From: Alphaproteobacteria bacterium
Lineage (GTDB): Bacteria; Pseudomonadota; Alphaproteobacteria; RF32; CAG-239
Direction: 5' to 3'
Assembly (NCBI GenBank): GCA_017465405.1
Contig: JAFTWG010000012.1
Span: 3,692-67,691 of the forward strand
Length of the DNA: 64,000 bases
This document shows positions 41,033 to 61,614 of the stretch, one piece after another. Under the pieces are notes generated by a model, which searched no databases, had not been told where the DNA came from, and was given only the letters and a program-made list of their open reading frames with translations. The position numbers and the translations under genes were made by a program. The stretch's first letter is position 1. Each line of letters starts with the position of its first letter.

Positions 41033-42049
41033 ATGAAAAAAAGTATACTGTTTTTAGGTTTATGTATGTTAGCCTTAAATGCAAATGCTCAAAATTTTGG
41101 CGGAAAAACGAACACTAATATGACGGCAAACGCTAAACCTGAGGAAGAAATGGGATTGATAAAACCCCACCCATTGTTGTCACTTTCAATTCCTGAAAAA
41201 TACAATTTTGATGATCATTTAACCCAAAATATGAAAACACAAAATGGTGAAAGCTTAAATTGTAAAGAACAAAATGAGGTTATTGTTTGCGTGGATAAAA
41301 ATCAAAAACCATTTACAGGTATTGCAAACGGCAGTGATTCTAAATTAAAGCTGACAAGTCAGGCTAATTACAAAAATGGCATGCTTAACGGATTATCTAG
41401 AATTATGTATGATAATAATAAAATTGCTTTCGAAGCTAAATATATCAATGGCAAAAGAAACGGAGTAGCTGTTGCTTATTCAAGGTTGGGACCTAAACAA
41501 AGCGAAACTCACTATAAAAACGGTAAAAAAGATGGACGTTACACTCTGTATTATTTAACAGGCATTAAAACCGTTGAGATGACATTTAAAAATGATAAAG
41601 CAGAAGGAATGGCAAGATCATGGCATCCTAATGGAAAACTACAATCCCAGGCTCTTTTTGTAGATAATTTGATGGAAGGAAATGTAACTTCTTATTATCC
41701 GCACGGAAAAATAGCATATCAAGAAGTATACAAAAACGGAAAAAGAAATGGTATTGTAAAACACTACGAGGAAAATACCGGAAAAATGGATATTGAAGCT
41801 CCTTACATAGATGGAAAAATTCATGGAACGTTGAAAATTTATGATAACGGCAGAATTATTTTTAAAACAGATTATGAAAATGATGTAGCTAATGGAGAAT
41901 ATATCGGATACAATGATAATGGAACAATCTCAATGAGTGCAACTATCGTAAATGGTAAATTAGAAGGAATGGCAAAGGTTTTCGATGACTATGGAAAATT
42001 GGAAAGTATCGAATATTATAAAGACGGAGAAGCAGTAGACCAACCATAA
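41033..42049 (+). CDS. secreted MORN/YwqK-type repeat protein
   Basis: Signal peptide MKKSILFLGLCMLALNANA|Q. At least 8 iterated Y(K/I)NGK(K/R)(D/N)G...Y units. Confidence 0.75.
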   Translation: MKKSILFLGLCMLALNANAQNFGGKTNTNMTANAKPEEEMGLIKPHPLLSLSIPEKYNFDDHLTQNMKTQNGESLNCKEQNEVIVCVDKNQKPFTGIANGSDSKLKLTSQANYKNGMLNGLSRIMYDNNKIAFEAKYINGKRNGVAVAYSRLGPKQSETHYKNGKKDGRYTLYYLTGIKTVEMTFKNDKAEGMARSWHPNGKLQSQALFVDNLMEGNVTSYYPHGKIAYQEVYKNGKRNGIVKHYEENTGKMDIEAPYIDGKIHGTLKIYDNGRIIFKTDYENDVANGEYIGYNDNGTISMSATIVNGKLEGMAKVFDDYGKLESIEYYKDGEAVDQP

Positions 42050-42080
42050 AAAAGGGAGCGTAATGCTCCCTTAATTTTTA
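42048..42080 (+). terminator. rho-independent terminator
   Basis: GGGAGC-gtaat-GCTCCC followed by TTAATTTTT. Confidence 0.75.
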
Positions 42081-42090
42081 GATTAGGATA

Positions 42091-42471
42091 TTAGTAATTT
42101 ATCCAAACAACTCTGTCACGAGAGATTCTGTCCGCATGCAAAGCTTTAGCCGCAAGCACGAGAAAAAGAATTACCCACATAACAAAAAAAGCCACCGGTC
42201 CTACAAAAGCAATAGACAGCCAGTTACCGGCAATCACTTCAGGCAGAGCACAAAAAATGAGTACAATCATCATAAGAGCCAGCGGCCACAGATACCATAC
42301 CATCATCCAACGAATGATATTCTGACAGGTTTTGTAGGCAACAATTTCTTCTTTAGAATGTGCGTACAAAAAAGCACTCTGCTTCTCATAAATGCCTATT
42401 TCGGCAAGACCGCACTCTTTCGGTGTTTTTTTATACACAGCTACAAATTTTTCCGTAGCTTCGTCAATCAA
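42091..42471 (-). CDS. small integral membrane protein, 126 aa
   Basis: Three hydrophobic helices. No recognised family. Confidence 0.45.
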   Translation of the reverse strand: MIDEATEKFVAVYKKTPKECGLAEIGIYEKQSAFLYAHSKEEIVAYKTCQNIIRWMMVWYLWPLALMMIVLIFCALPEVIAGNWLSIAFVGPVAFFVMWVILFLVLAAKALHADRISRDRVVWINY

Positions 42472-42754
42472 TCTTTGTTACATTTGATTTGTATTTTAAA
42501 TAGTTAGACATAATTATTTCAATTTTGCTTTATATAATAACGATTTTACACAAAATGCAATAAAAAACTTTGGGCGTTTTTTTATTTGAACTAAAATTAA
42601 TTATTAGAAATACGCTATTTTTGCAGAAAATATTGACAAAAAAACTTTTAAAATTTAATATAAAAACATGATTAGAATAACTAATATTTATTGTGTATAT
42701 CCCTGATGCCTTAGGCAAGTATCAAATCGGGATTAATGCCTAAAAATAACAACT

Positions 42755-43309
42755 ATGATACAAGCAATTAAAGGCTTAGAAATTGAGAACAAGGCTCCCA
42801 GAGCCGTAGTATGTAACCGCATTCCTTCAGACAATTTCTTCGGATGGAACAGCAACAAGGATATGCTCAAACTTGGTAGAGTATATCACATTGAGCGTCT
42901 GGTTGTACACAAGTGCAACACCGAAGTATTTTTGAAGGAGTTCCCCGGTTTTTCGTTTAATTCCGTTTGTTTCGGCGAAGTCGAAAATTCGAAGGCAGCA
43001 TCTCGTTTGCAATCAATTATTGACACGGCGAAAAACCGAGGAAGAGTCATAAAAAAACTCCGGCATCTGTCTTCTCCGAGAGCTGTCAATATTCAGATGT
43101 CTCGTTTCCACGTGAAGTTGACATCTGAACGTATGTCACTTTTGAAAGATGGTGATATTTTGGTAATCGGACGCGACGCAAGCTGTGACATCAACATCAC
43201 GAAGACAGATAGAGGTGTATCAAGATATCACTGTGTAATTGTGAAAAATTCACAGGGATATGACTTGTACGATATGTCTCTCTCGGGAACTACCGTGTGG
43301 TTTGACTAA
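42755..43309 (+). CDS. FHA-domain protein
   Basis: C-terminal FHA core GRDASCDINITKTDRGVSRYHCVIV...YDLYDMSLSGTTV. Confidence 0.7.
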   Translation: MIQAIKGLEIENKAPRAVVCNRIPSDNFFGWNSNKDMLKLGRVYHIERLVVHKCNTEVFLKEFPGFSFNSVCFGEVENSKAASRLQSIIDTAKNRGRVIKKLRHLSSPRAVNIQMSRFHVKLTSERMSLLKDGDILVIGRDASCDINITKTDRGVSRYHCVIVKNSQGYDLYDMSLSGTTVWFD

Positions 43310-43380: not shown

Positions 43381-43403
43381 TGGTAGGCGTGTGGGGGCTT
43401 GAG
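43381..43403 (-). repeat. partial direct copy (21/23 nt) of the tRNA-Lys 3' end, att-like
   Basis: tggtaggcgtgtgggggcttgag here versus tggtaggcgcgtgggggctcgaa at 43625-43647. Confidence 0.6.
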
Positions 43404-43580
43404 GAAAGAAAACAGTCCTGTGAACTGTTTTCTGACGAAAGGCGAACATTTGTTAGTTTGCAAACAAGATAACATCGCAGATTGCAAACGTTACAAATGG
43501 AGTGACCTAAGCGAGTTAGCGAAAGTATTGAGCTTATGAGCAAGAAGAACCCTCGGGTTCGAGCCCCGGAATATTTTGAT

Positions 43581-43613
43581 AAAAATAAAAGACCTTCAAA
43601 CTTGTTGAAGGCC
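43581..43613 (-). terminator. terminator downstream of tRNA-Lys (minus strand)
   Basis: Minus strand GGCCTTCAA-caagt-TTGAAGGTC followed by TTTTATTTTT. Confidence 0.7.
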
Positions 43614-43624
43614 TTCATTTATTA

Positions 43625-43700
43625 TGGTAGGCGCGTGGGGGCTCGAACCCCAGACCCACTGATTAAGAGTCAGTTGCTCTACCAACTGAGCTACGCACCC
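43625..43700 (-). tRNA. tRNA-Lys (anticodon CTT), 76 nt with encoded CCA
   Basis: Reverse complement folds as a cloverleaf. Acceptor GGGTGCG/CGCGCCT. D-arm GCTC-AGTTGGTA-GAGC. Anticodon stem ACTGA/TCAGT with loop CTCTTAA. T-arm CTGGGG-TTCGAGC-CCCCA. 3' end ACCA. Confidence 0.85.
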
Positions 43701-44161
43701 ATAATCTTTCTTACGGGAATATAGACCGCTAATATTTTTTTTGCAACAACTTTTTTATATAAACTTGCATTTTTTTTCTTGACATACACCGGCAAAAAAA
43801 TTAGAAAGCAGTCATTCAGTGATTTTTTAGATAATTTTTTTGTTTGTTTCCATAGGTTTTGTTTTTAATTGAGAACAATTAACTCCTTCTTTCGTTTTTA
43901 GTTGGTTGTACTCACGGACAGTATGGGCTGTGAAGTTCGTACTGTTTTCTCAAAGAAAATACGTTACCTGATATAAGCCGGTTGTTTAACCCGCTACAAA
44001 TACACTTTTTTGCTTGTGTCTGATAGGGATAGGGATGCTTTTGCATATTGTATACCTTACCATAGTGATGAATAATTTTATACCCCTATCCTACTCTTGC
44101 GAAGGCGACTTTAATCTTTTATGGTTAATGTCGCCTTTTTTATTCTCCATTCATAAAAAAA

Positions 44162-44183
44162 GGCTTTGCATTGCTGCAAAGCC
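44162..44183 (-). terminator. copy A of the conserved hairpin+U-run element, acting as the terminator after the immunity gene of cassette 1
   Basis: Minus strand GGCTTTGCA-gcaa-TGCAAAGCC followed by TTTTTTT. Confidence 0.7.
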
Positions 44184-44205
44184 GATTAAAGACTAACACA
44201 ATATT

Positions 44206-44694
44206 TTATATATCAATTTTCCGGTATACTACATAATGTATACTTTCTGTTATAATAACTATCGGAAGCCAAAACAAAACAACCCCCAAAAAAGATGTCC
44301 ATAACAACATTCCATCTATCCCTATCATAGTTACGGACAAAAGACATAACCAATTACATATTATCCAAAAGATAAACTCACCTGCTCTGATAATCACAGA
44401 TGAAAAACTTAATATTTTTTTGCGAAGATAATCATATAAAAAATATATCGGTCCCCAAAAAATATACAAAATATAAAATTTAACAGAAAAAACACAAGGC
44501 ATATCATGCCACACCCATTGATAAATAACACCATATTGCCACACATTATAATCACAAACTTCTCCATTGGGATTTGTTCCAAAACCGACTTGGAAAACCA
44601 TAGCAAAAAGAAACGTTACGCATAAAAAACATAGTATATATAATATGCTCTTAACAAATTTCTTGTTATAATATAGTCTCATTTTTCCTCCCAT
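44206..44694 (-). CDS. polytopic membrane protein, 162 aa. Candidate immunity protein for toxin 1
   Basis: 4-5 TM helices. Start overlaps the toxin 1 stop by 16 nt. Confidence 0.5.
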   Translation of the reverse strand: MGGKMRLYYNKKFVKSILYILCFLCVTFLFAMVFQVGFGTNPNGEVCDYNVWQYGVIYQWVWHDMPCVFSVKFYILYIFWGPIYFLYDYLRKKILSFSSVIIRAGEFIFWIICNWLCLLSVTMIGIDGMLLWTSFLGVVLFWLPIVIITESIHYVVYRKIDI

Positions 44695-45443
44695 GGTTTT
44701 GTTTCGTATGCAGTCTTAACTCTGGCTCCGACATTATTAATTATATATGCTCCGGTATCATTCCATAAAGTTCCTATTTTATCCGGTGTAGGATTATCAA
44801 TAGAACCATATAGTTGTTTTATAAGCCTTACTCCCAATTCAATATTTTGCTCTGCATCATAAGTATCATAATATTTACCCTGAAAATTTCCCCAAGTTTT
44901 ACCTTGTATATTCATCGGCATCTGACTACCTGACATAGAAAATAAATCGGCTAAATTATTAGCTCCCCCCTTATGTCCGGTTGCGGCTTCATTGTACATA
45001 ATAGCCTTAACTATGTCCGGAGATATGTTATATTTATTGGCATATTTTTCAATGCTGTCACTATATTTATTAACATAATATTTTCCTAGCCAATCCAAAG
45101 TATACCAAGGCCAATTATAATTTGCCTTATCATTATTTTTTATATTCAATTTAAGATGTTGCCCATTTTTTAACGCCATAATTCGTTGTCGTTCATCTAA
45201 ATTATTATCTGAAATACTTCGATATTTATCTATATCACTCATAACATTTGGATTATTATTTTGAGCATATAATATCCGTTTGTGTTCATAATCATTGTTT
45301 AGTTTTTCTCTCTCAACTCGGGCAAATTGATATTCCAATTCGTCTCGAGTAGTAAAGTTTTTATGATTGACACCATAGCTATCAATACCGTCATTATTGA
45401 TATAATAACCCGATTTTGATTTATATTGAGGATACATACTCAT
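44679..45443 (-). CDS. polymorphic toxin 1: conserved N-terminal domain plus lysozyme-like (SLT/lytic-transglycosylase-like) C-terminal domain
   Basis: N-terminus MSMYPQYKSKSGYYINNDGIDSYGVNHKNFTTRDELEYQFARVEREK is shared with toxin 2 at ~85-90% nt identity over the first ~200 nt. C-terminus has IMYNEAATGHKGG...SQMPMNIQ, reminiscent of the SLT ES...GLMQ core. No signal peptide. Confidence 0.55.
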   Translation of the reverse strand: MSMYPQYKSKSGYYINNDGIDSYGVNHKNFTTRDELEYQFARVEREKLNNDYEHKRILYAQNNNPNVMSDIDKYRSISDNNLDERQRIMALKNGQHLKLNIKNNDKANYNWPWYTLDWLGKYYVNKYSDSIEKYANKYNISPDIVKAIMYNEAATGHKGGANNLADLFSMSGSQMPMNIQGKTWGNFQGKYYDTYDAEQNIELGVRLIKQLYGSIDNPTPDKIGTLWNDTGAYIINNVGARVKTAYETKPWEEK

Positions 45444-45530
45444 TTATTTTTTTCTTTCATAAAAAAAAGGCTTTGCATTGCTGCAAAGCCGGTTAAAACA
45501 ACTTTCTTGACTTAATATTTTTTCAAACTA
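45230..45530. repeat. repeat unit copy B (toxin 5' region + hairpin/U8 + promoter-like segment)
   Basis: Matches the units at 47650-48017 and 48590-48960 across the toxin 5' region and the hairpin GGCTTTGCATTGCTGCAAAGCC at 45469-45490. Confidence 0.7.
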
Positions 45531-45570
45531 TTCTATATGAAAATACGACACAAATTTTATAAGGAAAACA

Positions 45571-46317
45571 ATGTTAAAAAAAATACTCATAATCATTTTT
45601 GCAACCTGTATTTTTTATAAAACAGCTAATGCCGATGTCTGTTATTATATAAATAAACAGACAATAAAAAATGCTGTTGAAATTATAAAAAAACAAAAAG
45701 AGGTTTTTAAGTATTGTTCAATATGTCCTTCTGCAGAAGCTCTAAAAATCGCAGTAAAAAATATCTCTGAAACATCCCCCATTGCAATAAATGGAACGAA
45801 TGTCGACATTGCTCACCTTTATTACTTCAAAAATAACAATTTTATAAATATCGGCATAGAAGCGGGTTGCATTAAAAACGGACAGTATGGTATAGAAAAA
45901 TCATTAAATAAACTTCCCATATTGTATGATTCTAAAGAAAAAAATATGGAATTGATTGAAGCTAAAATACAAAAAATTCATAATAAATGCTCGTCATTAT
46001 CAAAAAACAAAAATAATATTACTACAAATGACATGATTGATTATAACAGTCAATGCAGTCAATACTTTATTGAAGAGATAAAGAAAGAAATCAAGACAGC
46101 CTTCTCACCCCATGAACAAACAAAAATGTTAGAATATTTATCTCAATCTGAAAATGCCATTTTTAATTTTTATAATAATATATATTCCGCCAATAAATAT
46201 TGTGATGGACAATGTGGAACTATGGCAACCTACCTCCCATATATTGATAAAATCTCAATGTTGGAAAAAATGTTAAAAAAACTACTTTATCTTAATCTGA
46301 CAAAGAACGGATATTAA
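45571..46317 (+). CDS. secreted protein, 248 aa, unknown function
   Basis: Signal peptide MLKKILIIIFATCIFYKTANA|D. Lys/Asn-rich. Promoter lies in the repeat-derived segment (TTGACT...). Confidence 0.55.
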   Translation: MLKKILIIIFATCIFYKTANADVCYYINKQTIKNAVEIIKKQKEVFKYCSICPSAEALKIAVKNISETSPIAINGTNVDIAHLYYFKNNNFINIGIEAGCIKNGQYGIEKSLNKLPILYDSKEKNMELIEAKIQKIHNKCSSLSKNKNNITTNDMIDYNSQCSQYFIEEIKKEIKTAFSPHEQTKMLEYLSQSENAIFNFYNNIYSANKYCDGQCGTMATYLPYIDKISMLEKMLKKLLYLNLTKNGY

Positions 46318-46350
46318 ATAATATCCGTTTTTTTTAATTACTTTATTCTA

Positions 46351-46450
46351 ATTTGATTTATATTGAGGATACATATTCATTTATTTTTCCTTTCATAAAA
46401 AAAGGCCTTGCATTGCTACAAAGCCGATTAAAACAACTTTCTTGAATCAA
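46351..46450. repeat. repeat unit copy C: degenerate hairpin plus a 9-codon remnant of a toxin start (MNMYPQYKSN*)
   Basis: Minus strand ATGAATATGTATCCTCAATATAAATCAAATTAG. The hairpin GGCCTTGCATTGCTACAAAGCC has mismatches. Confidence 0.65.
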
Positions 46451-46466
46451 TATTTTTCCGCAAATA

Positions 46467-46901
46467 TTACAACCAACAATCACCTTTCATTTGTTGAATA
46501 TAGTCTTTTGCAATTTGTCGAAATATGTAATTAGCACGACTAATAGCCTCTGTATTGCGCATAGTTGCATGATCTGCCATGTCACTATATTGTGATATAT
46601 TATGACAATTCTTATATATATTAACAACCAATTTGTTAAAATCCTCTTTGACCTGCTTATTTCGTTTTGTATAAAAAGTATCAAATATTTTATATACAAC
46701 AGCAATAATACAATCAGCAGACTTATACGTAGCCTCATTCATATCTGCTGTTGATGGATTATTAGTCATATCAATTTTACAATTATTCAATTCTTCTTCA
46801 ATAGAATAAATGCTATTTATTATCGCAGTTGAACATATAGAATCATCTGCAAAAACACTAAAAGGCATTAATAAAAACAGCAAAAAAATAATCTTCTTCA
46901 T
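46467..46901 (-). CDS. secreted (periplasmic) protein, ~144 aa mature. Candidate immunity protein for toxin 2. Start taken at MKKIIFLL
   Basis: Signal peptide MKKIIFLLFLLMPFSVFA|DD, then a Cys-containing domain. Lies 10 nt downstream of the toxin 2 stop. Confidence 0.55.
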   Translation of the reverse strand: MKKIIFLLFLLMPFSVFADDSICSTAIINSIYSIEEELNNCKIDMTNNPSTADMNEATYKSADCIIAVVYKIFDTFYTKRNKQVKEDFNKLVVNIYKNCHNISQYSDMADHATMRNTEAISRANYIFRQIAKDYIQQMKGDCWL

Positions 46902-46911
46902 TGTTTTCCTC

Positions 46912-47796
46912 TCATTTCCCTGTATAGTACTGATGATACTTATTAAAAATATAATCGTCAACTCTATCTTTATATAGTTTTTCAAATTCATTAAAATTAC
47001 TATAATAATTCTGTAAACGATTATACCAACCTCTTAAATTATTAATATTTTCATGTGGATACTTATCTACACTATCAAAATATCTGCTCATTCTTTTTCT
47101 GGATAATAAATCATTAAACGGAACTATTTCATTTTCCTGAAATGAATTTATATAATTTGCTAATTTTTGTGAAACTCTTGTATTTCCAGCAAAGTTAGTA
47201 TTTTTATATTCATTAACAGCTGAAGCTAAATCATATCCAGCTATAGTTCCTTGATTCATCAATCCGTCAAAAACATTCCTTGCAATAGATACATTATCAA
47301 TCTGATTTATACCATACCGTTGATAGTACATTTCATCCAATATTTGTTTAGCCTGTTGAGGTTTTAGGTGCTCAACATATTTAGGAAAATTACTTCCTTT
47401 TTTTAATGGGTGATTCCATAAATTATATTCATTTAATGAATTCTGCGTAATTCCATAATTAGTAGGACCGCCTAAATCATTTTCACGATTAGAATACCCC
47501 ATTTCATGATCTGCTGTTCCTTTATATATAAAATTATTATTATCATCTTTTTTTGAATAATAAATATCGTCAAAATTATATTCCATTACATCACTCATAA
47601 CATTTGGATTATTGTTTTGAGCATATAATATTCCGTTTTTATTATTGTTAATCTGTTTTTCTCTCTCAACTCGGGCAAATTGATATTCCAATTCATCTCG
47701 AGTGCTAAAATTTTTATGATTAACTCCATAATTATCAATACCGTCATCATTAATATAATAACCCGATTTTGATTTATATCGAGGATACATATTCAT
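46912..47796 (-). CDS. polymorphic toxin 2: conserved N-terminal domain plus GH108-family muramidase C-terminal domain
   Basis: N-terminus MNMYPRYKSKSGYYINDDGIDNYGVNHKNFSTRDELEYQFARVEREK. C-terminus HEMGYSNRENDLGGPTNYGIT...IARNVFDGLMNQG matches the GH108 core (EGGYVNDPxDPGGxTxxGIT...AVFDxxVNxG). Confidence 0.7.
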   Translation of the reverse strand: MNMYPRYKSKSGYYINDDGIDNYGVNHKNFSTRDELEYQFARVEREKQINNNKNGILYAQNNNPNVMSDVMEYNFDDIYYSKKDDNNNFIYKGTADHEMGYSNRENDLGGPTNYGITQNSLNEYNLWNHPLKKGSNFPKYVEHLKPQQAKQILDEMYYQRYGINQIDNVSIARNVFDGLMNQGTIAGYDLASAVNEYKNTNFAGNTRVSQKLANYINSFQENEIVPFNDLLSRKRMSRYFDSVDKYPHENINNLRGWYNRLQNYYSNFNEFEKLYKDRVDDYIFNKYHQYYTGK

Positions 47797-48017
47797 TTAT
47801 TTTTTCCTTTCATAAAAAAAAGCTTTGCATTGCTGCAAAGCCGATTAAAACATCTTTCTTGACTTGATAATTTTTCGATACTATGCTCCTTTTATATAGA
47901 GAGGAGCTTTTACAATGAAAAAACATATTATATTATGCTTGACATTCTTATTATCTGCCTGTTCTCTTTTTAATTCTTATGATAAAGAGTTCAAAAACCC
48001 TATTTTTTACCAACCTA
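47650..48017. repeat. repeat unit copy D (~370 bp): toxin 5' region, hairpin/U8, sigma70-like promoter, RBS and first ~35 codons of a lipoprotein gene
   Basis: Near-identical to 48590-48960. Hairpin at 47822-47842. TTGACT-17-TATGCT. RBS GAGGAG. Lipoprotein N-terminus MKKHIILCLTFLLSAC. Confidence 0.8.
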
Positions 48018-48328
48018 TGCGTCCTCTTTCAACACGTACGGGATGGACATATTTAACTCCTACTTCCGTCAATTTTAGAACACCATTGGATAAAAATAAA
48101 ATCAATTCAACCGGAAAATGCGACCTCATTGAAAACGAACAAGATAAAATTACCTTAAAATGTAAAATTTTTAGGAGAGACGGATATGTCACAACTGAAT
48201 ATTTGACTTACGTAATAACTGATCTGTATCTTTTTGATCGTTTAAGAATCGAAGAAAGAATAGATGGTGGGGGAACCTATTCTCTTAGTGTAACGCCTCA
48301 TTATTTAATCTCTCCAACACACCATTGA
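47915..48328 (+). CDS. lipoprotein paralog A, 137 aa
   Basis: Lipobox LLSAC. N-terminal 35 aa and 5'UTR identical to paralog B. Shares the internal KCDLIENEQDK(I/V)TLKCK. Confidence 0.65.
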   Translation: MKKHIILCLTFLLSACSLFNSYDKEFKNPIFYQPMRPLSTRTGWTYLTPTSVNFRTPLDKNKINSTGKCDLIENEQDKITLKCKIFRRDGYVTTEYLTYVITDLYLFDRLRIEERIDGGGTYSLSVTPHYLISPTHH

Positions 48329-48740
48329 ATTTAATTTGCTTCGTGCCCAATCATTTCTACCTGCGTGAACATCTTTGCGATGAACATTATTTCTGATATC
48401 ATTAACATTACATTCTTCTATCACCCTAAATAAATTAGGCCAATACTTTGGGGTTAACTTTCCGGTATTATACTGAATATCAAGCAATACCTCTTTTAAT
48501 TCTATCGGAAATTTATCAAAATCATTAAATTGTCGACGCAAATGAGCTAAGTCATTATTCATATGTTTTTGTGCTAAAGAGCGGGCATAATCATCTGTTT
48601 TTCTCTCTCAACTCGAGCAAATTGATATTCTAATTCATCTCTAGTAGTAAAGTTTTTATGATTAACTCCATAGCTATCAATACCATCATCATTGATATAA
48701 TAACCCGATTTTGATTTATATTGAGGATACATATTCATTT
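48305..48740 (-). pseudogene. degraded toxin copy 3: 48-codon N-terminal remnant, stop, then out-of-frame T4-lysozyme-like C-terminal half (85-aa ORF 48305-48562)
   Basis: MNMYPQYKSKSGYYINDDGIDSYGVNHKNFTTRDELEYQFARVEREKQMIMPAL* then a frame change. The 85-aa ORF EVLLDIQYNTG...RNDWARSKL resembles the C-terminal lobe of GH24/T4 lysozyme (ALINMVFQMG...NRAKRV). The catalytic N-lobe is missing. Confidence 0.55.
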
Positions 48741-48960
48741 ATTTTTTCCTTTCATAAAAAAAAGGCTCTGCATTACTGCAAAGCCGGTTAAAACAACTTT
48801 CTTGACTTAATATTTTTTTGATACTATGCTCCTTTTATATAGAGAGGAGCTTTTACAATGAAAAAACATATTATATTATGCTTAACTTTTTTGTTATCTG
48901 CCTGTTCTCTTTTCAATTATTATGATAAGGAGTTCAAAAATCCTATTTTTTATCAACCTA
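48590..48960. repeat. repeat unit copy E (~370 bp)
   Basis: See copy D. Hairpin GGCTCTGCATTACTGCAAAGCC at 48764-48785. Confidence 0.8.
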
Positions 48961-49307
48961 TACAAAACACTTTATACTACTCAAGAGGGGCTATCGAAGA
49001 AATTATAATATATACATACTTGACACCTACAAGTTTTACTTTTAAGGATGTTTCAAAGAATATTGTACTCAGTACCCCAAACAAATGTGATCTCATCGAA
49101 AATGAACAAGATAAAGTAACCCTAAAATGCAAAGTTGATAAGTTTGGCGAACCCGCTATTTATTATTTGCAATTTAAAATTAAGAACACCAAAGATAGTG
49201 ACTGCACAAAAATCGTAACTTATTTGGCTTATAATGATATCAAAAAGCTAGATTCACATATTTCCGGATGTGTTGTCCATTCTGATAAACAGGCAGATAA
49301 AAATTAA
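48858..49307 (+). CDS. lipoprotein paralog B, 149 aa
   Basis: MKKHIILCLTFLLSACSLFNYYDKEFKNPIFYQP... Lipobox LLSAC. Confidence 0.65.
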   Translation: MKKHIILCLTFLLSACSLFNYYDKEFKNPIFYQPIQNTLYYSRGAIEEIIIYTYLTPTSFTFKDVSKNIVLSTPNKCDLIENEQDKVTLKCKVDKFGEPAIYYLQFKIKNTKDSDCTKIVTYLAYNDIKKLDSHISGCVVHSDKQADKN

Positions 49308-51568
49308 AATCTGTTACTGTTTATATTTCCTTTTAATATTGCCGGAATATCGTTAAAATTGCTCACATTTTGCCAGATGGAAGCAACTCTTTCTGCCGAA
49401 TAAGTTTTATAACAAAAATCTACCCGATAAAAATCTGCTTTTATCTGTTTGGCTTCTTTAGCAATGCAAAACGGCTTCTCATCAAATACAAAAGTTTGAC
49501 AATTTTTAGATAATGCCCAATAAGTTTTTCCGTCTTTTTGCAACATCATCCAACGAGTACCTTTCAAGCATTTTGCACACGGATTTTCTCTAATACAAAC
49601 TGCACTAGAAAATAGCGGAATATCCTGATAAATCGGCAAAACCACCGCTAACGGAGATTTTTTTGCTAAATCTTTCATATTATCAATAGTATCTTCTACC
49701 GACATAGATATTCTAGATACAGATATTTCTTTCGCCATATTAATAGCCTGTGTATTCATCATATAAAGACTATTATCAAAAGCCAAATCTATCCCTTTAT
49801 TCGGTAAAACTTCTAATCCCCACCAATTACCGATAGTCCATTTTTTATAGCCTTGAGCTAGGATTTTTTCGGCAACTTTAGCCAATACGGCAGAATTACG
49901 AGCTAATGCCGGCAAAACAATTCTTACTTTGGTTTTGGGAAGTTTTTTTAAGCACTCAATATCAAAATCGGCATTTATCAAAACTTCTACTTCTGCAACA
50001 GTTTCTAAATCTATTTTTGCCAAATTATCAACATTGTCTGTTCTGATAATCCATTTAGGTTCGTTTACTTTTCTTGGCTCTGAAACCTCTGGCAATTCGC
50101 CCTTTTTACCGTTAATTTCTATTTTAGTGTATAAACCGCGTCGCAATTCGTTTAACATTGACATTGGCACAAAAAGATGCTGCAAGTTATTGATATGCAA
50201 GTTTTTCAAGGTAAAAAGTGTATCTCCGGTTTTATTAAAAGCCTTTTGTACGGCATCATTCATCTTTTCAACATTTTCGGTTGGAGAAAACTCTCCTTCG
50301 ATACAAAATTCTGCCCCATTACCGCTTGCTTTTATAACATTCGGCAAAATACTGACCTCAACATCTATATCATAGCGGCGGCTATACTCCCCTGACTTCG
50401 GACGAGAATAATCATAACTACCTTTTACTTCACTTGCCGAAGCTAAATATATTTTCTGCCCTTTTTCTATGCCGAAAGTTTTTGCGGGAAGTTGCACAGT
50501 CACTTCATCGCCTACATTAGCCTCAAAAACTCTTTGCCCTTTTACCGTCATATTTTGCAATGAAAATCCGAATGGTTTTTCCTGTCCCGGAATATCAATT
50601 TGCAATCCATCGTGACGAGCTATTTTGTGATATGCTTTAAAGACAATTTTACCTTTTACAATTTGATTAATTTTTCCGATATGCAAACCACGATGACCGA
50701 CAAAATCTCTATCCACAACTTCCTTATTTTTGCCGTTGAACATAAATTTGCACCAAGGGCGAGAGAATATTTGTTTAATGTTCTCTTCTTTTTGAGCGAT
50801 AGCACCTTTACCATCTAAAATATTTCGATAATAATCAGTAACGGCAGCAACATACAAAGCATTTTTCTTACGTCCCTCAATTTTTAGTGATGTTACCGGC
50901 ATCTTCAATATATCTTGTTGTAAAGCCATATCTTTCATTGAAAAATAGTGCATTTCACCGGCTTCACCCATAAACAACGAACGACAAGGATATAAACATT
51001 TTCCCCTATTGGCGCTACGACCGCTATCTATTGACGAAAACAAACATAACCCGCTATAAGAATAGCATAATGCACCATGTATAAATGCTTCTGTTTCCAA
51101 TCCCTTAATTGAGGCAATATCCTTAATTTCGGCCAGTGAGAGTTCTCGAGCCAACACTACTCGCTTAAACCCGAGTTTTTGCAAGGCTAATGCCCCCTGT
51201 TTATTGTGTACCGCCATTTGCGTACTTGCGTGTAACTCCAATTCCGGATATTTATCACGAATAACTTTTGCCACACCTAAATCTTGTAAAATTACACCGT
51301 CAACTCGACAATTTGAACATATGTCCAAGCTTTTTATCAACTCCGGAAGCTCATTTTCTTGAACCAAAGTATTGATAGCTGCATATACTTTACGCTTCAA
51401 ACTATGAGCATATCCGACAAATTCGCTCAATTCTTCTTCGCTGAAATTAACCGCAGTGGCTCGTGCCGAAAAATGTTTTAACCCTAAATATACCGCATCA
51501 GCACCATAATATATGGCCGCATAACCTGCTTCAATATCTCCGGCAGGAGCTAATAGTTCTTTCTTCAT
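49304..51568 (-). CDS. U32 family peptidase, double-domain (754 aa)
   Basis: N-terminal LLAPAGDIEAGYAAIYYGADAVYLG U32 signature. Second U32-like half. Confidence 0.8.
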   Translation of the reverse strand: MKKELLAPAGDIEAGYAAIYYGADAVYLGLKHFSARATAVNFSEEELSEFVGYAHSLKRKVYAAINTLVQENELPELIKSLDICSNCRVDGVILQDLGVAKVIRDKYPELELHASTQMAVHNKQGALALQKLGFKRVVLARELSLAEIKDIASIKGLETEAFIHGALCYSYSGLCLFSSIDSGRSANRGKCLYPCRSLFMGEAGEMHYFSMKDMALQQDILKMPVTSLKIEGRKKNALYVAAVTDYYRNILDGKGAIAQKEENIKQIFSRPWCKFMFNGKNKEVVDRDFVGHRGLHIGKINQIVKGKIVFKAYHKIARHDGLQIDIPGQEKPFGFSLQNMTVKGQRVFEANVGDEVTVQLPAKTFGIEKGQKIYLASASEVKGSYDYSRPKSGEYSRRYDIDVEVSILPNVIKASGNGAEFCIEGEFSPTENVEKMNDAVQKAFNKTGDTLFTLKNLHINNLQHLFVPMSMLNELRRGLYTKIEINGKKGELPEVSEPRKVNEPKWIIRTDNVDNLAKIDLETVAEVEVLINADFDIECLKKLPKTKVRIVLPALARNSAVLAKVAEKILAQGYKKWTIGNWWGLEVLPNKGIDLAFDNSLYMMNTQAINMAKEISVSRISMSVEDTIDNMKDLAKKSPLAVVLPIYQDIPLFSSAVCIRENPCAKCLKGTRWMMLQKDGKTYWALSKNCQTFVFDEKPFCIAKEAKQIKADFYRVDFCYKTYSAERVASIWQNVSNFNDIPAILKGNINSNRF

Positions 51569-53341: not shown

Positions 53342-53416
53342 TTACATTCTTCATAAAAGTTAACTTTGTCCGCATACTATACAATTTTTAATAATTTGCC
53401 AAGACATTTTATATAC

Positions 53417-53647
53417 TTATTTACACAGCTCTAATTCTTGTCTTAACTTATTAATTTTTTCAAGCCATTGCCACAAAAAAGGAGCCTGCTCAAAACTGAT
53501 TTGAACAAGCTCTTCTGCAACTTTTACTCCTGCTTTCGGATATACGGGACAATAATACTCATAATTGGTTTTTGCGCATGAGTTCAAGCAAATTGTTACG
53601 ACCGATATTAGGACTGCCGTATATTTTTGATTTTTTCTTTTCAACAT
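53417..53647 (-). CDS. o-spanin-like small lipoprotein (Rz1-like), embedded/overlapping arrangement
   Basis: Lipobox ICLNSC. 76 aa. Overlaps the 3' end of the preceding TM-protein ORF in another frame. Confidence 0.45.
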   Translation of the reverse strand: MLKRKNQKYTAVLISVVTICLNSCAKTNYEYYCPVYPKAGVKVAEELVQISFEQAPFLWQWLEKINKLRQELELCK

Positions 53648-53861
53648 ATTTTATTACCTCTATTTGTTCGGTTATAATTTTAGTTTTGGCATGAGAGCGT
53701 CCCAAAAAATATGAAAACAATACAAGCGCAAAAATAAATATTAAATATGTCACAATCCTAACCACGATAAAACATCCCTCCCCGCCAAACACAAAGCCAG
53801 TATCATACCCCATAAAAGCCAATAAATTTTTTTGTGTTTTATCGCCAAAGCAAATAACCAT
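53559..53861 (-). CDS. i-spanin-like protein (Rz-like), N-terminal TM plus charged periplasmic tail. Start uncertain (ATG 53861 or TTG 53867)
   Basis: TM IVVRIVTYLIFIFALVLFSYFLG then ITEQIEVIKYVEKKK. Overlapped by the lipoprotein ORF. An alternative-frame 59-aa ORF with a strong RBS also exists here (see rejected). Confidence 0.4.
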   Translation of the reverse strand: MVICFGDKTQKNLLAFMGYDTGFVFGGEGCFIVVRIVTYLIFIFALVLFSYFLGRSHAKTKIITEQIEVIKYVEKKKSKIYGSPNIGRNNLLELMRKNQL

Positions 53862-53909
53862 CGCCAAAACTTATAACAACAATTTTGATGTTCCGTCATA
53901 ACTTCCTCC

Positions 53910-53941
53910 AACAAAAAAGACACGAAAAAAATTTCGTGTCT
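53910..53941 (-). terminator. intrinsic terminator inside the lysis region (minus strand)
   Basis: Minus strand AGACACGAAA-ttttt-TTCGTGTCT followed by TTTTTTG. Confidence 0.65.
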
Positions 53942-54095
53942 TTATTAAAAAAAATATCTTATAATCAAGGTAAGTTTTTTATCTCACCCGTTAAAAATAA
54001 AAATATGATTCCAATAACCCACAGGCAAAAATAAATAACTATTATCCAAGCTAAAGTTAATGATATATATTTAGGAGCTTTATATATATATTTAG

Positions 54096-54524
54096 TTATT
54101 TTTTCCATACATTATTCTTCCAATCCAAATTACTTAGCCATATTCTACAATCTTTATAAGGATTATTCAATCCCCAATTTATACCTTCCATATTATTTTT
54201 CATATCCTTATAAGAATCTTGTATACTTTCACTCCAAGGCATATCTCCTACAACAGATTTATTATAAATATCATATGCTTCTTTCAGCATTCCCAGAGAC
54301 CACCCCTTAGTTGGAGCCATAATATCACCTTTTCCCAGTCTTTGTCCAACTTCACACATTCCTAATCTATGATAATAATTATCAAGACCATTTGCTGCTC
54401 CTGAACCATATTGTCGAACAAGTCTTTTTCCCTCATTTTTCAATTTTACTTGATTGTCATTTAAAATTTTATATTCCGGCATCCAACCTAATACAACATC
54501 TGCTACTCTTTTTATATTTGTCAT
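54096..54524 (-). CDS. hypothetical protein, 142 aa, within lysis cassette
   Basis: Clean ORF between the endolysin and the spanins. Trp-rich. No motif recognised. Confidence 0.5.
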   Translation of the reverse strand: MTNIKRVADVVLGWMPEYKILNDNQVKLKNEGKRLVRQYGSGAANGLDNYYHRLGMCEVGQRLGKGDIMAPTKGWSLGMLKEAYDIYNKSVVGDMPWSESIQDSYKDMKNNMEGINWGLNNPYKDCRIWLSNLDWKNNVWKK

Positions 54525-54534
54525 AACTTCCTCC

Positions 54535-54976
54535 TTATTTTATATCATTGTAAAATAAATGATTTTTAGTTTCATAACACGGGCTATGATGTTTAGCCCA
54601 TTTCGGTTTTATCTGTTTGGTATGATAAAAAGTCGCATTATTGGTAAAATCTGACAACTCGCCATCAATCGCTTTTTTTGCTATTTTAATACAACAGACA
54701 AAAGCTTTGTCTTTTTCATTTACCGTCATCAGTTTAGAATAATTTACATCGTTTTTATTCCAACAACTGAATTGTGCTTTTTTCAAACAGGTTGCTTTTA
54801 TATCCGCAACTTTTTGACCTTCTTCAATCCTATATCCCGTAAACCATTTTTTTGCCTTAAAACGATTAATTATCACTCGAGCAACGGCCTCTATCCCCTC
54901 TGCTCCGTCCCCCCTTGCTTCTCCCCACAAAGTTCTGGCCATAATTTGCAAATCACCCCACTCGTCAATTTTCATT
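54535..54976 (-). CDS. endolysin, SleB/CwlJ-type cell-wall hydrolase (Hydrolase_2 family). Track ORF extends to 55026
   Basis: ARTLWGEARGDGAEGIEAVARVIINR family signature. Confidence 0.75.
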
Positions 54977-55264
54977 TTTACCGACCTTTCTTTTGCAATT
55001 AAGCAACAAATCAAGTTTGCTTTCAAAACTGTCGAACTTACTTTCCAGTTTTGCCAACATAATATTTTGGTGATTTTGCATCATCATAATTGAAGCTGTT
55101 TCTTTATCTGTCTTATCCACTCTCTGCATAATCCCTGACAAACGTTCTTCCAAACGTCCTTTCCAAGTTCCGACTTTTACTAAATTCCACAACATTCCCG
55201 CCAAAGCAGAAATTCCGGAAACAGCACCGATCACATTTATAAATTCCATTTGTTTTCTCCACAA
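54965..55264 (-). CDS. holin candidate, 99 aa, single TM
   Basis: TM FINVIGAVSGISALAGMLWNLV followed by a charged tail. Immediately upstream of and overlapping the endolysin. Preceded by a terminator/promoter gap. Confidence 0.55.
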   Translation of the reverse strand: MWRKQMEFINVIGAVSGISALAGMLWNLVKVGTWKGRLEERLSGIMQRVDKTDKETASIMMMQNHQNIMLAKLESKFDSFESKLDLLLNCKRKVGKNEN

Positions 55265-55287
55265 AAAAAAGGGGCATTTCTGCCCCG
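55262..55287 (-). terminator. terminator separating structural genes from the lysis cassette (minus strand)
   Basis: Minus strand GGGGCA-gaaa-TGCCCC followed by TTTTTTTT. Confidence 0.75.
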
Positions 55288-55575
55288 TTATTCTTTCGGA
55301 TAATCTGTTTTTATTTTACTTATTGTATCCGCCCATATATTAGTTTGATTTACTTTATCCCAATAAATCATATCAAGTTGTTCTCCGATATCAGGATACG
55401 CCATTCGACGTTTGGCTTGATAATCGGGTTCTTTTTTTTCTGACTTTTCCGCAAAATAAAAATCTCCTTTCTCTACAATTTTATATTGATTTTGATTACA
55501 CCACTCCGCCCATTTTTGATAAATTTCCGTATTAAACTCTTTTTTTTTCATAACAAAATTTACAAAATCAATCAT
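55288..55575 (-). CDS. hypothetical phage protein, 95 aa
   Basis: ORF in the structural block. Confidence 0.45.
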   Translation of the reverse strand: MIDFVNFVMKKKEFNTEIYQKWAEWCNQNQYKIVEKGDFYFAEKSEKKEPDYQAKRRMAYPDIGEQLDMIYWDKVNQTNIWADTISKIKTDYPKE

Positions 55576-55584
55576 TTTTATCTC

Positions 55585-56307
55585 CTAAAATCCTATTGCC
55601 AACCAATGCCAAGCTGACGTTGCAAAACAATAATATGAAAACCCAGTAGTTTGCAGTTCCCTTATTATCAACGTAGCAACTTGATTTGTGCTGGCTGTCG
55701 AATATCTTGAAGTCGTCAAAGTATACACCGTTGTGTTAAACGGTTGCGGATAACTTATGCTTCCTTCTGTTTCGGTATACACTTTTCCCCATTGAATCAA
55801 AAATCCGTTGGCAAACTTCAAATGGTTAGTTCCTTTTTCAACTAAATTGAAGCCGTTTATAAATTCCGTCGTTGCCACATTGTTTGAAATATCGTCAACC
55901 GCAGGTGTTACTGCTTTTAACAAGCCCAAAAATTCTTTATCCCCCAAAATTGTTTGTCCATCTTCAACAGTTACTATTTTTTCCAATCTGGTATCAATAT
56001 CTGCAATTCCGCTTTCAACCACCGAATTAATATCATTACGCCCTTCTGCCACTATTTCAGCTGCTTCTTGCACATAATTTTTAACTTCCTGTTTTGAATT
56101 TTCTAATTCATCAAACAACAATTTTTCTTTATCTGCCACATAGTCGTCAATTTCAGGTTTAGATTTTTCATCTACATAATATTGAATTTCTTCTTCTCCC
56201 GATTTTATGTAGCTGACATCAACTTCAGTTTCTAAACACACCTCATTTTGAAAAAAAACATCAAAATCTTTTGAGGCATAATTTTCAAAAATATTAATTT
56301 CCGTCAT
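55585..56307 (-). CDS. phage structural protein, 240 aa (possible fibre/receptor-binding protein)
   Basis: Acidic N-terminal half and beta-rich C-terminal half. Position beside the tail-collar gene. Confidence 0.4.
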   Translation of the reverse strand: MTEINIFENYASKDFDVFFQNEVCLETEVDVSYIKSGEEEIQYYVDEKSKPEIDDYVADKEKLLFDELENSKQEVKNYVQEAAEIVAEGRNDINSVVESGIADIDTRLEKIVTVEDGQTILGDKEFLGLLKAVTPAVDDISNNVATTEFINGFNLVEKGTNHLKFANGFLIQWGKVYTETEGSISYPQPFNTTVYTLTTSRYSTASTNQVATLIIRELQTTGFSYYCFATSAWHWLAIGF

Positions 56308-56656
56308 CGCCTACCTCTGCACTAATTTGAAATATTGCATTTGAAGTTAAATCTTGCGGAAAAATTGTATGTACATCTCCATTTTTGAAAATAATTTCAA
56401 TGTTAGCAGCATAAATACCCGCCTCTTGCTCAGAGTGTTTCGGCAAAATTTTAATTCTGGCTTTTCCGTTTACGCCATCAATTATTTCTCCGATAATTTT
56501 GAATTTTAGAATTTTATCCTTATCCTGTACGGTTAAAAGTATTTTGCTTTCACTTATATCAATCGGAGTTCCGTTTTTATTCTTAAATTGCATAACAATA
56601 TCAAAACTGTCACCCTGTCTGACTAAAATACTGTTAGTAGTCATAATTCCTGCCAT
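56294..56656 (-). CDS. hypothetical phage protein, 120 aa
   Basis: Clean ORF whose start overlaps the collar gene's stop. Confidence 0.45.
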   Translation of the reverse strand: MAGIMTTNSILVRQGDSFDIVMQFKNKNGTPIDISESKILLTVQDKDKILKFKIIGEIIDGVNGKARIKILPKHSEQEAGIYAANIEIIFKNGDVHTIFPQDLTSNAIFQISAEVGDDGN

Positions 56657-56657
56657 A

Positions 56658-57431
56658 TCAATCCTCCTTTGCCTTAATAAAGTAATTTAATGCAATATTT
56701 TTCATTCTTATTTCCGAAGAACGCCCATAAACCGAGTTTGATTTCGTTGCACTAAAATTAACGATTGAAAAATTTTTACCGGCATCAAGACCGCCGTCAT
56801 ATTTTCCGGTTACTGAAGATGAACTGAATGCTCCGGTTAATGACGAAGAATATTCTGCCGCACCTCCGGCAAAACGACCGCCGATATTCGGAGCACCATC
56901 TTGTTGATAGCTTCCAAATTTTCGGTCGGCATCCAATCCTCGTCCTTTATCAAGACCTCTGACAACCACACCTCGACAATCGGGAAGGTTAAAAGTAGTT
57001 ACGCCATTTCCCTTACCAAAGGCCGTTCCTATCGCCTCAAATAATATCTCATATTCTTCACGTTCAACTTCACGACCATCGCATAACAACCAGTTTTTAT
57101 GGTCTTTTTGCAAAGCAGAGCATTTGATGTCACCTACACATAATGTTTGATTTATTTTGTCGGTAACATCGTTTTTTGCTTCTTCTAATTGTTGTTTATT
57201 AATTGCATCGTTTACAGAAGTTGCTTTTCCGACATTATTAATTCTGAAACCGCCCAAATTTAAATTTGCTTCCATCGGAACTAAGCCGTTACGTAACAAA
57301 CACTCGTTTAATCCTTGTGCAAAATTATCATCTTCTTCATCATGATGATCACTGACAATATCAATATCGTCTATTCTGTCTTGTTCCCAGTTATGTAAAC
57401 GATAAAATTTTCCTTGTGAATCAAAAGGCAT
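56658..57431 (-). CDS. tail fibre protein with phage tail-collar domain
   Basis: LLCDGREVEREEYEILFEAIGTAFGKGNGVTTFNLPDCRGVVVRG matches the tail-collar (Phage_T4_gp12-like) motif. Confidence 0.7.
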   Translation of the reverse strand: MPFDSQGKFYRLHNWEQDRIDDIDIVSDHHDEEDDNFAQGLNECLLRNGLVPMEANLNLGGFRINNVGKATSVNDAINKQQLEEAKNDVTDKINQTLCVGDIKCSALQKDHKNWLLCDGREVEREEYEILFEAIGTAFGKGNGVTTFNLPDCRGVVVRGLDKGRGLDADRKFGSYQQDGAPNIGGRFAGGAAEYSSSLTGAFSSSSVTGKYDGGLDAGKNFSIVNFSATKSNSVYGRSSEIRMKNIALNYFIKAKED

Positions 57432-57434
57432 TCT

Positions 57435-58496: not shown

Positions 58497-58791
58497 TCAG
58501 TGCATTAATACGCCGACATTTAAGAACTTCAAAACCTGTTCCAAAAATTTGTTTAAGAGTTTTTTGTGAACACCAATGTTTGTCATCGGTGTATATATTT
58601 ATCCAAGTTGACGTTTTGTCTTGATAATCACAATAAACCACACCGCCGACAATTTTATTTTGATAAACTATCCCAAGAGCCAAACAATCATTAACATCAT
58701 CAAAATTTAGTCCCAGACCTTTAGCTACATACGTTTTTATATTTCCGCTTTTATCATAAAAAACCTCAGACAATTCCATCTCCCGTTTCAA
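58336..58791 (-). CDS. GNAT-family acetyltransferase embedded in the tail gene block (RimJ/RimL-like)
   Basis: 151 aa with a GNAT fold signature (...LAKRCGFKKEGKMRQF...). The annotated ORF overlaps the fibre gene by 160 nt, so the true start is probably an internal Met. Confidence 0.5.
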   Translation of the reverse strand: MKREMELSEVFYDKSGNIKTYVAKGLGLNFDDVNDCLALGIVYQNKIVGGVVYCDYQDKTSTWINIYTDDKHWCSQKTLKQIFGTGFEVLKCRRINALIDTRNKSSISLAKRCGFKKEGKMRQFRDNGQDVFVFGMLRNECKFINNSKKEK

Positions 58792-61551: not shown

Positions 61552-61614
61552 TTTATTTCTCCATATAAAAAGGCGGCACCGTTAAAGCACCGCCCTTATT
61601 TATTATTCTAAAAA

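Follow-up and report, generated by a model that had tools for sequence, protein, structure and literature searches.

A 48-residue N-terminal module as the constant domain of a lineage-specific family of putative polymorphic toxins in gut Alphaproteobacteria

The framework of polymorphic toxins, with its displacement of C-terminal domains and its orphan cassettes, is said to have been set out by Zhang, Aravind et al. in 2012, and several N-terminal markers of such proteins, namely MIX, LXG, and TANFOR, became tools for finding toxin arsenals once they had been defined. Here we analyze a protein segment of this kind encoded in a stretch of 64,000 nucleotides, hereafter the window, from an alphaproteobacterium of the RF32 lineage (GenBank assembly GCA_017465405.1, contig JAFTWG010000012.1, positions 3,692–67,691). 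The segment, termed the module, covers residues 1–47/48 (MNMYPQYKSKSGYYINDDGIDSYGVNHKNFTTRDELEYQFARVEREKQ) of three open reading frames (ORFs) on the minus strand, which encode putative toxins numbered here from 1 to 3. The locus and its relatives display three generic features of polymorphic toxin systems: a constant N-terminus followed by unrelated C-termini, an adjacent immunity-like gene that co-varies with the C-terminus, and C-terminal displacement. We identify the module, from its sequence and genomic context, as the constant N-terminal domain of a lineage-specific polymorphic toxin–immunity family that appears not to have been described before, this domain being present in none of the libraries searched and in none of the literature found. 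As the module is the sole part common to all these toxins, while the partner genes track the C-terminus, we propose that it is the determinant of toxin delivery between cells, a reading to which we assign a probability of about 0.7.

The module and the proteins that carry it

Toxin 1 (254 residues, positions 44679–45443, minus strand) is made up of the module, a junction motif, and an SLT-like lytic transglycosylase domain; toxin 2 (294 residues, 46912–47796, minus strand) has the same two blocks in front of a GH108 muramidase domain. The module occupies codons 1–48 of both genes (45300–45443 and 47653–47796) and recurs at 48595–48738 in the head of toxin 3, an ORF that stops after 54 residues (48574–48738, minus strand). 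The three 144-nucleotide copies are 90.3–92.4% identical to one another, and a tblastn search of the window with the module returns matches with E values of 1e-28 to 1e-30 that are confined to the array locus. A first-pass annotation of the window had reported the same module in three genes, which is borne out, and its statement of high conservation holds as well, although the measured identity is slightly higher than the 85–90% it gave. The repeat extends upstream of the module into the 5' untranslated region, with the ribosome-binding site (RBS) and a hairpin (a family of 222 nucleotides, 79–95% identity). Downstream, toxins 1 and 2 alone have a second common block, the junction motif ILYAQNNNPNVMSD (45234–45275 and 47590–47631, minus strand), in which 41 of 42 nucleotides are identical. 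It is because of this block that the shared region had been given as 48–70 residues: 48 residues are common to all three genes, and the longer span applies only to toxins 1 and 2. Outside the common blocks these two genes are unrelated, as had been noted, with blastn matches of merely 11–12 nucleotides. Residues 130–233 of toxin 1 match the Pfam family SLT (E = 4.5e-5), while toxin 2 matches Pfam Glyco_hydro_108 (E = 5.7e-15), a PHROG endolysin (E = 9.7e-19), and an NCBIfam muramidase (E = 5.2e-10). An orthologue of toxin 1 is present in the strain L002 at 12214–12924.

None of the three proteins has a recognizable signal peptide or transmembrane segment, in agreement with the annotation. The maximal Kyte–Doolittle mean over 15 residues within the first 70 residues (54 in toxin 3) ranges from -0.15 to -0.50, and the maximal mean over 19 residues anywhere in the window toxins is 0.44, leaving no hydrophobic segment. 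Of the composition described as rich in Tyr, Lys, and Gly, the Tyr content stands (6 per 48 residues), whereas Lys (4) and Gly (3) show no notable enrichment. Toxin 3 is a pseudogene: the stop after 54 residues is followed by an ORF of 85 residues (48305–48562, minus strand) encoding only the C-terminal part of a lysozyme-like domain, with a weak match to Pfam Pesticin (E = 0.076) and a resemblance to the C-termini of the intact 'type 2' toxins of the family. The 54-residue sequence is found on 23 contigs of the species, and the 85-residue ORF comes after it in 10 of the 10 places listed. A vestigial fourth head, reduced to an RBS and nine codons (MNMYPQYKS, 46352–46380, minus strand), is present in front of a putative orphan immunity gene.

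The module is a protein domain under purifying selection and not merely a repeated DNA segment, since the substitutions among its copies are mostly synonymous: the ratio of nonsynonymous to synonymous polymorphism (pN/pS) is 0.07–0.25 for seven copies, drawn from the window and from two further strains, with pS reaching 0.47 and pN at most 0.08. An exhaustive HMMER profile search of 1.84 billion representatives of 50%-identity clusters retrieved 197 cluster representatives with the module at E ≤ 1e-3 (119 at E ≤ 1e-10). This overturned the restriction to one species suggested by a word-indexed search, which had given four short same-species clusters (at most about 160 residues). The match covers residues 1–59 in nearly all representatives, the few offsets resembling miscalled starts, and the family proteins always begin with the module at residue 1 and have no signal peptide. 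The family consensus, MxMYxxYKSPLGYxxGxNxIDSYGVDHSGFSTRDELEYQxARxxRENQLxxxYNxQGITxNYPQYGTNFWGxxxxNNYGFGxSNIxxNIEN, is longer than the form seen in the window; its invariant columns in 42 diverse sequences are Y13, D21, Y23, G24, V25, H27, F30, D34, Y38, R42, and E46. In most relatives the domain reaches about 90 residues and is then usually followed by a low-complexity linker rich in Gln, Asn, Ser, Thr, and Pro, with QTPTPW-type motifs in 18 of 150 long members. A subset of relatives carries, as the window copies do, just the first ~50 residues, which suggests that the 48-residue core can stand alone.

AlphaFold, run on an 87-sequence alignment of the 88-residue N-terminal region, predicts with confidence a folded domain with a long helix at residues 32–55 (pLDDT 82.8, pTM 0.70); a single-sequence model of toxin 2 was unusable (pLDDT 37). 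No similarity of the module to a characterized domain was detected. Pfam searches of the window proteins and 42 module sequences at E cutoffs of 1–10 returned only noise for this region, as did a sequence-profile search of the PDB; NCBIfam and PHROGs gave no significant match, the only N-terminal alignments being to PHROGs at E values of 0.009–0.09; and a Foldseek comparison of the modeled N-terminal region with the PDB and BFVD yielded nothing similar. A literature search returned no description of the module, nor of secretion systems in this lineage. The annotation had called the module unrecognized and had proposed a profile search, and both its view and the outcome of that search agree here. 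Its analogy to MIX, LXG, PAAR-linker, or DUF4157 N-termini found no backing: MIX, LXG, PAAR, and DUF4157 are curated in Pfam-A, and none of the Pfam-A families is similar to the module.

The module heads at least 16 types of C-terminus, into which 73 full-length neighbors were sorted. The Pfam domains of 73 long members comprise GH108 (12 proteins), PG_binding_3 (6), the serum-amyloid-A-like SAA (5), T6SS_VgrG3-like_C (4), Tlde1 (4), YkuD (2), GH46 (2), SLT (2), and Phage_lysozyme (1), and many other C-termini are not recognized by Pfam. A nuclease-type member was considered on account of a weak PBECR2 match below the Pfam cutoff and was set aside, as related proteins did not confirm it. The C-termini accordingly have the appearance of interchangeable toxin domains, mostly predicted cell-envelope enzymes. 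Directly before them, about 25 of 150 long members, including both intact window toxins, carry the junction motif [IQ][QLK][YL]AQNxxxNxxSD[VA] (general form xQYAQNxxxNxxSDV), which precedes diverse toxin domains, whatever their type.

Partner genes, cassette exchange, and upstream elements

Across 185,579 species-representative genomes, a scan yielded 231 confirmed loci, almost all of them in metagenome-assembled genomes (MAGs) of gut or rumen Alphaproteobacteria. For the analysis of genomic context, ORFs were called and clustered in the best 80 of these loci, which come from 48 assemblies. Among them, up to six module loci occur per genome, and all except three belong to gut or rumen MAGs named 'Alphaproteobacteria', 'Azospirillum sp. 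51_20', UMGS, or RUG. The three exceptions (L072, L080, and L042) are short contigs from bins assigned to Bacteroidaceae, Eubacteriales, and Gastranaerophilales, and most likely represent binning errors rather than horizontal transfer.

In the related loci a small partner gene almost always comes after the module gene; it encodes either a multi-pass membrane protein on the same strand or a convergent signal-peptide protein or lipoprotein. The soluble and lipoprotein partners are mostly convergent, so they are transcribed separately from the toxin. The partner family tracks the C-terminal type of the toxin and does not co-vary with the module: type 4 toxins are accompanied by c3 partners (6/6), type 6 by c12 (4/4), the lysozyme-like type 2 by convergent downstream c4/c9 lipoproteins (7/8), and type 1 (GH108 plus PG_binding_3) by c6/c55 (8/10). 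Such co-variation is the signature of cognate immunity, a role that fits the partners' position and their signal-peptide or transmembrane features, and we refer to them below as putative immunity genes.

Read along the minus strand, the window array begins with a putative orphan immunity lipoprotein (149 residues, 48858–49307, plus strand) with no toxin gene before it. It is a paralogue of the gene at 47915–48328 (family D3), with 89% identity to the 5' part of the latter, which encodes a 137-residue lipoprotein (plus strand, lipobox LSAC), is convergent with toxin 3, and is the putative immunity gene for that toxin type, its homologues being the c4/c9 lipoproteins found with type 2 toxins. 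Toxin 2 is followed by its putative immunity gene, a called gene for a Cys-rich protein of 144 residues with an N-terminal signal peptide (46467–46901, minus strand); in other genomes, c18-type counterparts come after this GH108 type (2/2). Next come the vestigial head and a putative orphan immunity gene (248 residues, signal peptide, 45571–46317, plus strand), convergent with a deleted toxin: in the strain L004 the same 248-residue gene (6178–6924) lies convergent behind an intact module–GH108–PG_binding_3 toxin, which takes the position of the vestige. Toxin 1 and its partner, a multi-pass membrane protein of 158 residues (44206–44682, minus strand; a gene call in L001) whose gene overlaps the toxin 1 stop codon, complete the series before a tRNA-Lys gene; c20-type homologues of this partner come after SLT-type toxins in other genomes. 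By this reading the array holds two intact 'minimal' toxins, a decayed one, and two orphan immunity genes.

Comparison with the other strains places the exchange of cassettes at the end of the module. Collinearity of the window with L004 extends from 49391 as far as 47570 (codon ~75 of toxin 2, immediately after the junction motif) and is then lost; homology resumes at 46351, ends again at 45292 (codon ~50 of toxin 1), and resumes at 44209. The strain L002 likewise differs from the window by whole cassettes. Elsewhere there are 5'-truncated orphan cassettes without the module, which open within the linker, immediately ahead of the junction motif (MQSLNLNASSALYPQQNSF.TYSQPYQLAQNSLPNSGSD); they are found at 3913–4602, 5522–6313, and 8574–9404 of L022, at 4397–5185 of L028, and at 2120–2788 of L082, and are analogous to orphan cdiA-CT or rhs-CT modules. 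The breakpoints of strain homology at the end of the module or junction, together with the orphan cassettes, support the recombination-driven C-terminal displacement that the annotation had put forward. The module, with the hairpin and the RBS before it, forms in such events the upstream homology arm for cassette exchange between strains.

The hairpin is terminator-like, with the stem halves GGCTTTGCA and TGCAAAGCC separated by GCAA (GGCTTTGCA-GCAA-TGCAAAGCC) and followed by a T-run, and it ends about 25 nucleotides before each toxin start. The copy at 45469–45490 lies upstream of the toxin 1 ATG; others, all on the minus strand, are at 48764–48785, 47821–47842, 46404–46425, and 44162–44183, the last of these closing the array. 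Terminator-like sites number 12 observed against 2.1 expected. All four variant positions of the stem pair as G·U in the minus-strand RNA (A·C on the other strand), and therefore it is in the toxin-sense transcript that the hairpin would act. Of 56 toxin heads in other genomes, 20 are preceded within 120 nucleotides by a hairpin with a T-run; at least four unrelated stem sequences are represented, and in about half of those 20 the stem ends 20–24 nucleotides before the ATG. The gap between hairpin and RBS is too short for a promoter; the hairpin might allow read-through under certain conditions or insulate the individual cassettes. A six-codon upstream ORF (MKEKNK or MKGKNK; 45444–45470 and equivalents), which overlaps the toxin start by ATGA, was also considered; it is not conserved in other loci and is probably a by-product of the A/G-rich RBS region.

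In 17 of the 80 loci (including L015, L021, L034, L037, L038, L050, L053, L054, L076–L078, L085, L088, and L090), the first toxin gene is immediately preceded by a further gene, c1, which encodes a protein of 150–250 residues and has no copy in the window. The c1 product shows a weak XRE-type helix-turn-helix domain, PHROG transcription-regulator matches, and a conserved C-terminal domain (RDKKYAPFREYFK...NNREFKK). Palindromes such as TTGCAAAATTTTGCAA or TACGTAAT...ATTACGTA, are located after c1, just before the toxin RBS, and c1 is probably a dedicated repressor.

The array sits in a variable island between the gene for tRNA-Lys(CTT) at 43625–43700, which is the sole Rfam match in 43400–49400, and a gene of the U32 family, since the genes beyond the tRNA differ between strains. 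The strain-variable segment there (41033–43309) encodes an FHA-domain protein and a MORN-repeat protein in the window; its counterpart in L002 encodes a 325-residue protein and a faintly ADP-ribosyltransferase-like protein. The FHA protein (42755–43309) was examined as a TagH component of a type VI secretion system (T6SS) and rejected, its match being limited to the generic FHA domain. According to Pfam, the window flanks carry Rnf, Lpt, Mla, and MacAB genes, an MsbA-like ABC exporter, and the U32-family protein, and the host, an alphaproteobacterium, is a diderm that possesses Lpt, MsbA, and Mla genes. At about 53400–64000 (minus strand), a prophage late region contains capsid-size and tail genes, tail fibers with Peptidase_S74, Collar, and Gp53-like_C domains, and a Hydrolase_2 lysin; the array lies outside it, 4 kb away, with the MsbA-like and U32 genes between them. 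Just beyond the window end, L011 includes the prophage terminase and two SAA-domain proteins; SAA is also among the C-terminal toxin domains that the module heads.

Candidate routes of delivery and rival explanations

We propose that the module would move a leaderless toxin between cells, where the variable C-terminal domain would attack the envelope and the cognate partner would protect. The module is strictly N-terminal and strongly constrained, and everything else at the loci is toxin-type-specific. Two versions of this proposal are about equally likely, each being tentative and well short of even odds: in the first, an export machine whose genes lie elsewhere in the genome would recognize the module; in the second, the toxin, once released, would use the module to engage a conserved component of the envelope of related target cells. 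Several observations weigh against a delivery role of either kind. No delivery partner of the module was found among the neighbors in the 80 loci, where the sole recurrent neighbor that is not immunity-like is c1; and the window copies lack family residues 49–92 and the long linker, so those parts are dispensable. The earlier suggestion of a trafficking or secretion-targeting domain is thus upheld as far as the module is the constant domain of swapped toxins; its link to a secretion system gained no support, as the proposed survey of neighborhoods, run on the 80 loci with 10-kb flanks, recognized none.

The first version treats the module as an export signal or adaptor-binding marker for a system encoded elsewhere, whether T6SS-like, an extracellular contractile injection system (eCIS), a type I secretion system (T1SS), or the flagellar type III system. 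It is in keeping with leaderless proteins that have a strictly N-terminal constant domain, with a single module common to several toxin loci per genome, with orphan cassette arrays resembling those of contact-dependent inhibition (CDI), Rhs, and MafB, and with the presence of Tlde1 and VgrG3-like_C domains, which are known from T6SS effectors; the L079 locus adjoins genes that look flagellar hook-associated by sequence (FlgK/FlgL-type). Yet profile comparison links the module to no Pfam trafficking domain, and the Pfam-annotated window region contains no VgrG, Hcp, PAAR, adaptor, T1SS, type IV secretion system (T4SS), or eCIS gene. No apparatus or adaptor of these kinds (VgrG, Hcp, PAAR, adaptor, T1SS, T4SS, a pair of ABC transporter and membrane fusion protein, or a tail-like cluster) was recognized, mostly by inspection by eye, among the recurrent or large neighbors in the 10-kb flanks of the 80 loci either, and the large neighbors within 4.5 kb resemble housekeeping genes or autotransporters by sequence. 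The 73 long members show no fusion to the T6SS structural domains VgrG, PAAR, or Hcp. The ABC transporter gene near the window array, considered as a bacteriocin exporter, was rejected as MsbA-like and without a peptidase domain. Many immunity genes are convergent, an arrangement that is unusual for T6SS effector–immunity pairs.

The second version likens the proteins to bacteriocins of the colicin M, pesticin, or S-type pyocin kind, released by leakage or lysis, with the module as a Ton/Tol-type translocation handle into the periplasm of related cells. The loci, which hold just toxin and immunity genes with no export genes recognized, agree with it, as do the small size of the proteins (250–420 residues) and their peptidoglycan-active C-terminal domains, among them the pesticin/lysozyme-like type. 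The convergent, independently transcribed genes for periplasmic immunity proteins, the repressor-like regulator with operator-like palindromes or terminators upstream, the disordered Gln/Asn/Gly/Ser-rich segment with QTPTPW motifs that follows the module, and the confinement of the module to a narrow lineage point the same way. The near-invariant D-[ST]-Y-G-V (residues 21–25) loosely resembles what we take to be the TonB-box pattern, but it matches in just three of five positions. Against import, Pfam and PDB sequence searches gave no matches to colicin or pyocin families, including their translocation and receptor domains, and neither a variable receptor-binding domain nor a release or lysis gene is evident. 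Moreover, the N-terminal region is predicted to be folded and not disordered, a single handle is common to several toxin loci per genome, and the loci are chromosomal, none being found in the plasmid collection scanned.

A bolder form of the delivery proposal, which we regard as unlikely, is that the module marks a novel, lineage-specific route for leaderless antibacterial toxins in diderms, neither T6SS-type export nor Ton/Tol import, with the 48-residue core as a self-sufficient portable tag.

The module could also have a role outside trafficking, as a pro-domain or autoinhibitor, in docking a chaperone or c1, in surface anchoring, or in self-assembly. The small folded domain with a long helix that AlphaFold predicts and the lack of a delivery partner among the neighbors would suit such a role, and the adjoining Tyr/Asn/Gln/Gly-rich segments could drive aggregation. 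However, with at least 16 unrelated toxin folds attached to it, fold-specific autoinhibition is unlikely; peptidoglycan hydrolases need no inhibition in the cytoplasm; and the module stands strictly at residue 1. We consider these roles, taken together, rather improbable.

That the conservation reflects only a DNA handle for recombination, with a peptide devoid of function after recent duplication or gene conversion, is very improbable: the block of conservation does reach beyond the coding region into the leader and hairpin, and it is where the cassette breakpoints fall, but the overwhelmingly synonymous substitutions largely refute this explanation, and the protein is conserved across an order-level lineage although the leader and hairpin DNA has completely diverged.

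The least probable explanation, to which we attach hardly any weight, is that of phage-derived endolysins or autolysins for self-lysis with the module as a lysin regulatory domain, the alternative that the first-pass annotation had itself named; the GH108 and SLT domains, the PHROG endolysin matches, and a prophage with tail-fiber and lysis genes 4 kb away recall it, whereas the array lies outside that prophage, which has a lysin of its own, the module was found in none of 2.9 million viral contigs, cognate and orphan immunity genes specific to the toxins are present, and the same module heads toxin domains not recognizable as peptidoglycan hydrolases. The single match in a phage collection (L094; GenBank MT838567.1, 5120 bp, human faeces, 'UNVERIFIED: Bacteriophage sp.') was rejected as a phage, as it has no phage genes. 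The only genes on it are those for a c1 regulator, module toxins, VgrG3-C-like toxins, and immunity proteins, and bacterial DNA present in a virome preparation is its probable source. The VgrG3-C-like ORFs of this record have another N-terminal sequence (MKNQSEYVWSYAAYGGEPQYIQTPYG...), perhaps a second type of head.

Comparison with known toxin systems

A single profile of the module retrieves hundreds of putative toxins from uncultured gut and rumen alphaproteobacteria, many of whose C-terminal domains and immunity proteins are unrecognized by the libraries. The family raises the question of the route by which cell-wall enzymes devoid of a signal would pass between diderm cells into the periplasm when no secretion genes are recognized nearby. 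The module would gain in interest if its delivery route proved to be new, and, were the route identified, the 48-residue core found on the natural 'minimal' toxins would lend itself well to use as a portable tag for delivery.

The catalytic domains of toxins 1 and 2 are like those of phage GH108 and SLT endolysins, including holin-associated muramidases. Unlike these, the module proteins are not part of a lysis cassette, have an additional N-terminal domain and paired putative immunity genes, and are absent from the viral collections. What the family shares with LXG proteins of the type VII secretion system (T7SS) and DUF4157 proteins of the eCIS is the idea of polymorphic toxins headed by a targeting domain, a putative one here. 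It differs from both by the absence of a Pfam match; LXG moreover belongs to the T7SSb of Gram-positive bacteria, whereas the module host is a diderm, and in contrast to eCIS cargo no eCIS cluster was recognized in the window or at the 80 loci, the nearby tail-like genes being those of a complete prophage with terminase.

Colicin M, pesticin, and the S-type pyocins are closer in design: they too are small leaderless proteins with an N-terminal delivery module (a presumed one here) and a C-terminal enzyme acting in the periplasm, their immunity proteins are periplasmic or membrane-bound and often encoded on the opposite strand, no exporter is encoded at the locus, and a pesticin/lysozyme-like C-terminal domain occurs. 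The module proteins have no homology to their translocation or receptor domains, and are encoded in multi-copy chromosomal arrays.

The T6SS markers MIX, FIX, and RIX are likewise N-terminal, family-defining domains; the proteins that bear them lack leaders, vary in their antibacterial C-termini, and are encoded beside immunity genes at dispersed chromosomal sites, and the Tlde1 and VgrG3-C-type toxin domains are a further point in common with T6SS effectors. The module shows neither sequence nor profile similarity to these markers, is much shorter, and is found in one gut alphaproteobacterial lineage, with vgrG, hcp, PAAR, or adaptor genes recognized near none of the 80 loci.

CdiA, Rhs, and MafB proteins differ from the module proteins in several respects: the latter have only about 250–600 residues, with a constant part of 48–92 residues, and carry no signal peptide and no two-partner secretion, RHS, PAAR, or DUF1020 domain; in the window, each cassette still has an entire head, including an RBS and a start codon of its own; and many of the immunity genes are convergent. 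In the logic of the locus, the family is nonetheless like CdiA-CT/CdiI, Rhs, and MafB, with a constant N-terminus, variable C-terminal toxins and adjacent, here putative, cognate immunity genes, a short pre-toxin junction motif at the point of exchange, 5'-truncated orphan cassettes together with orphan immunity genes, and strain breakpoints at the domain boundary.

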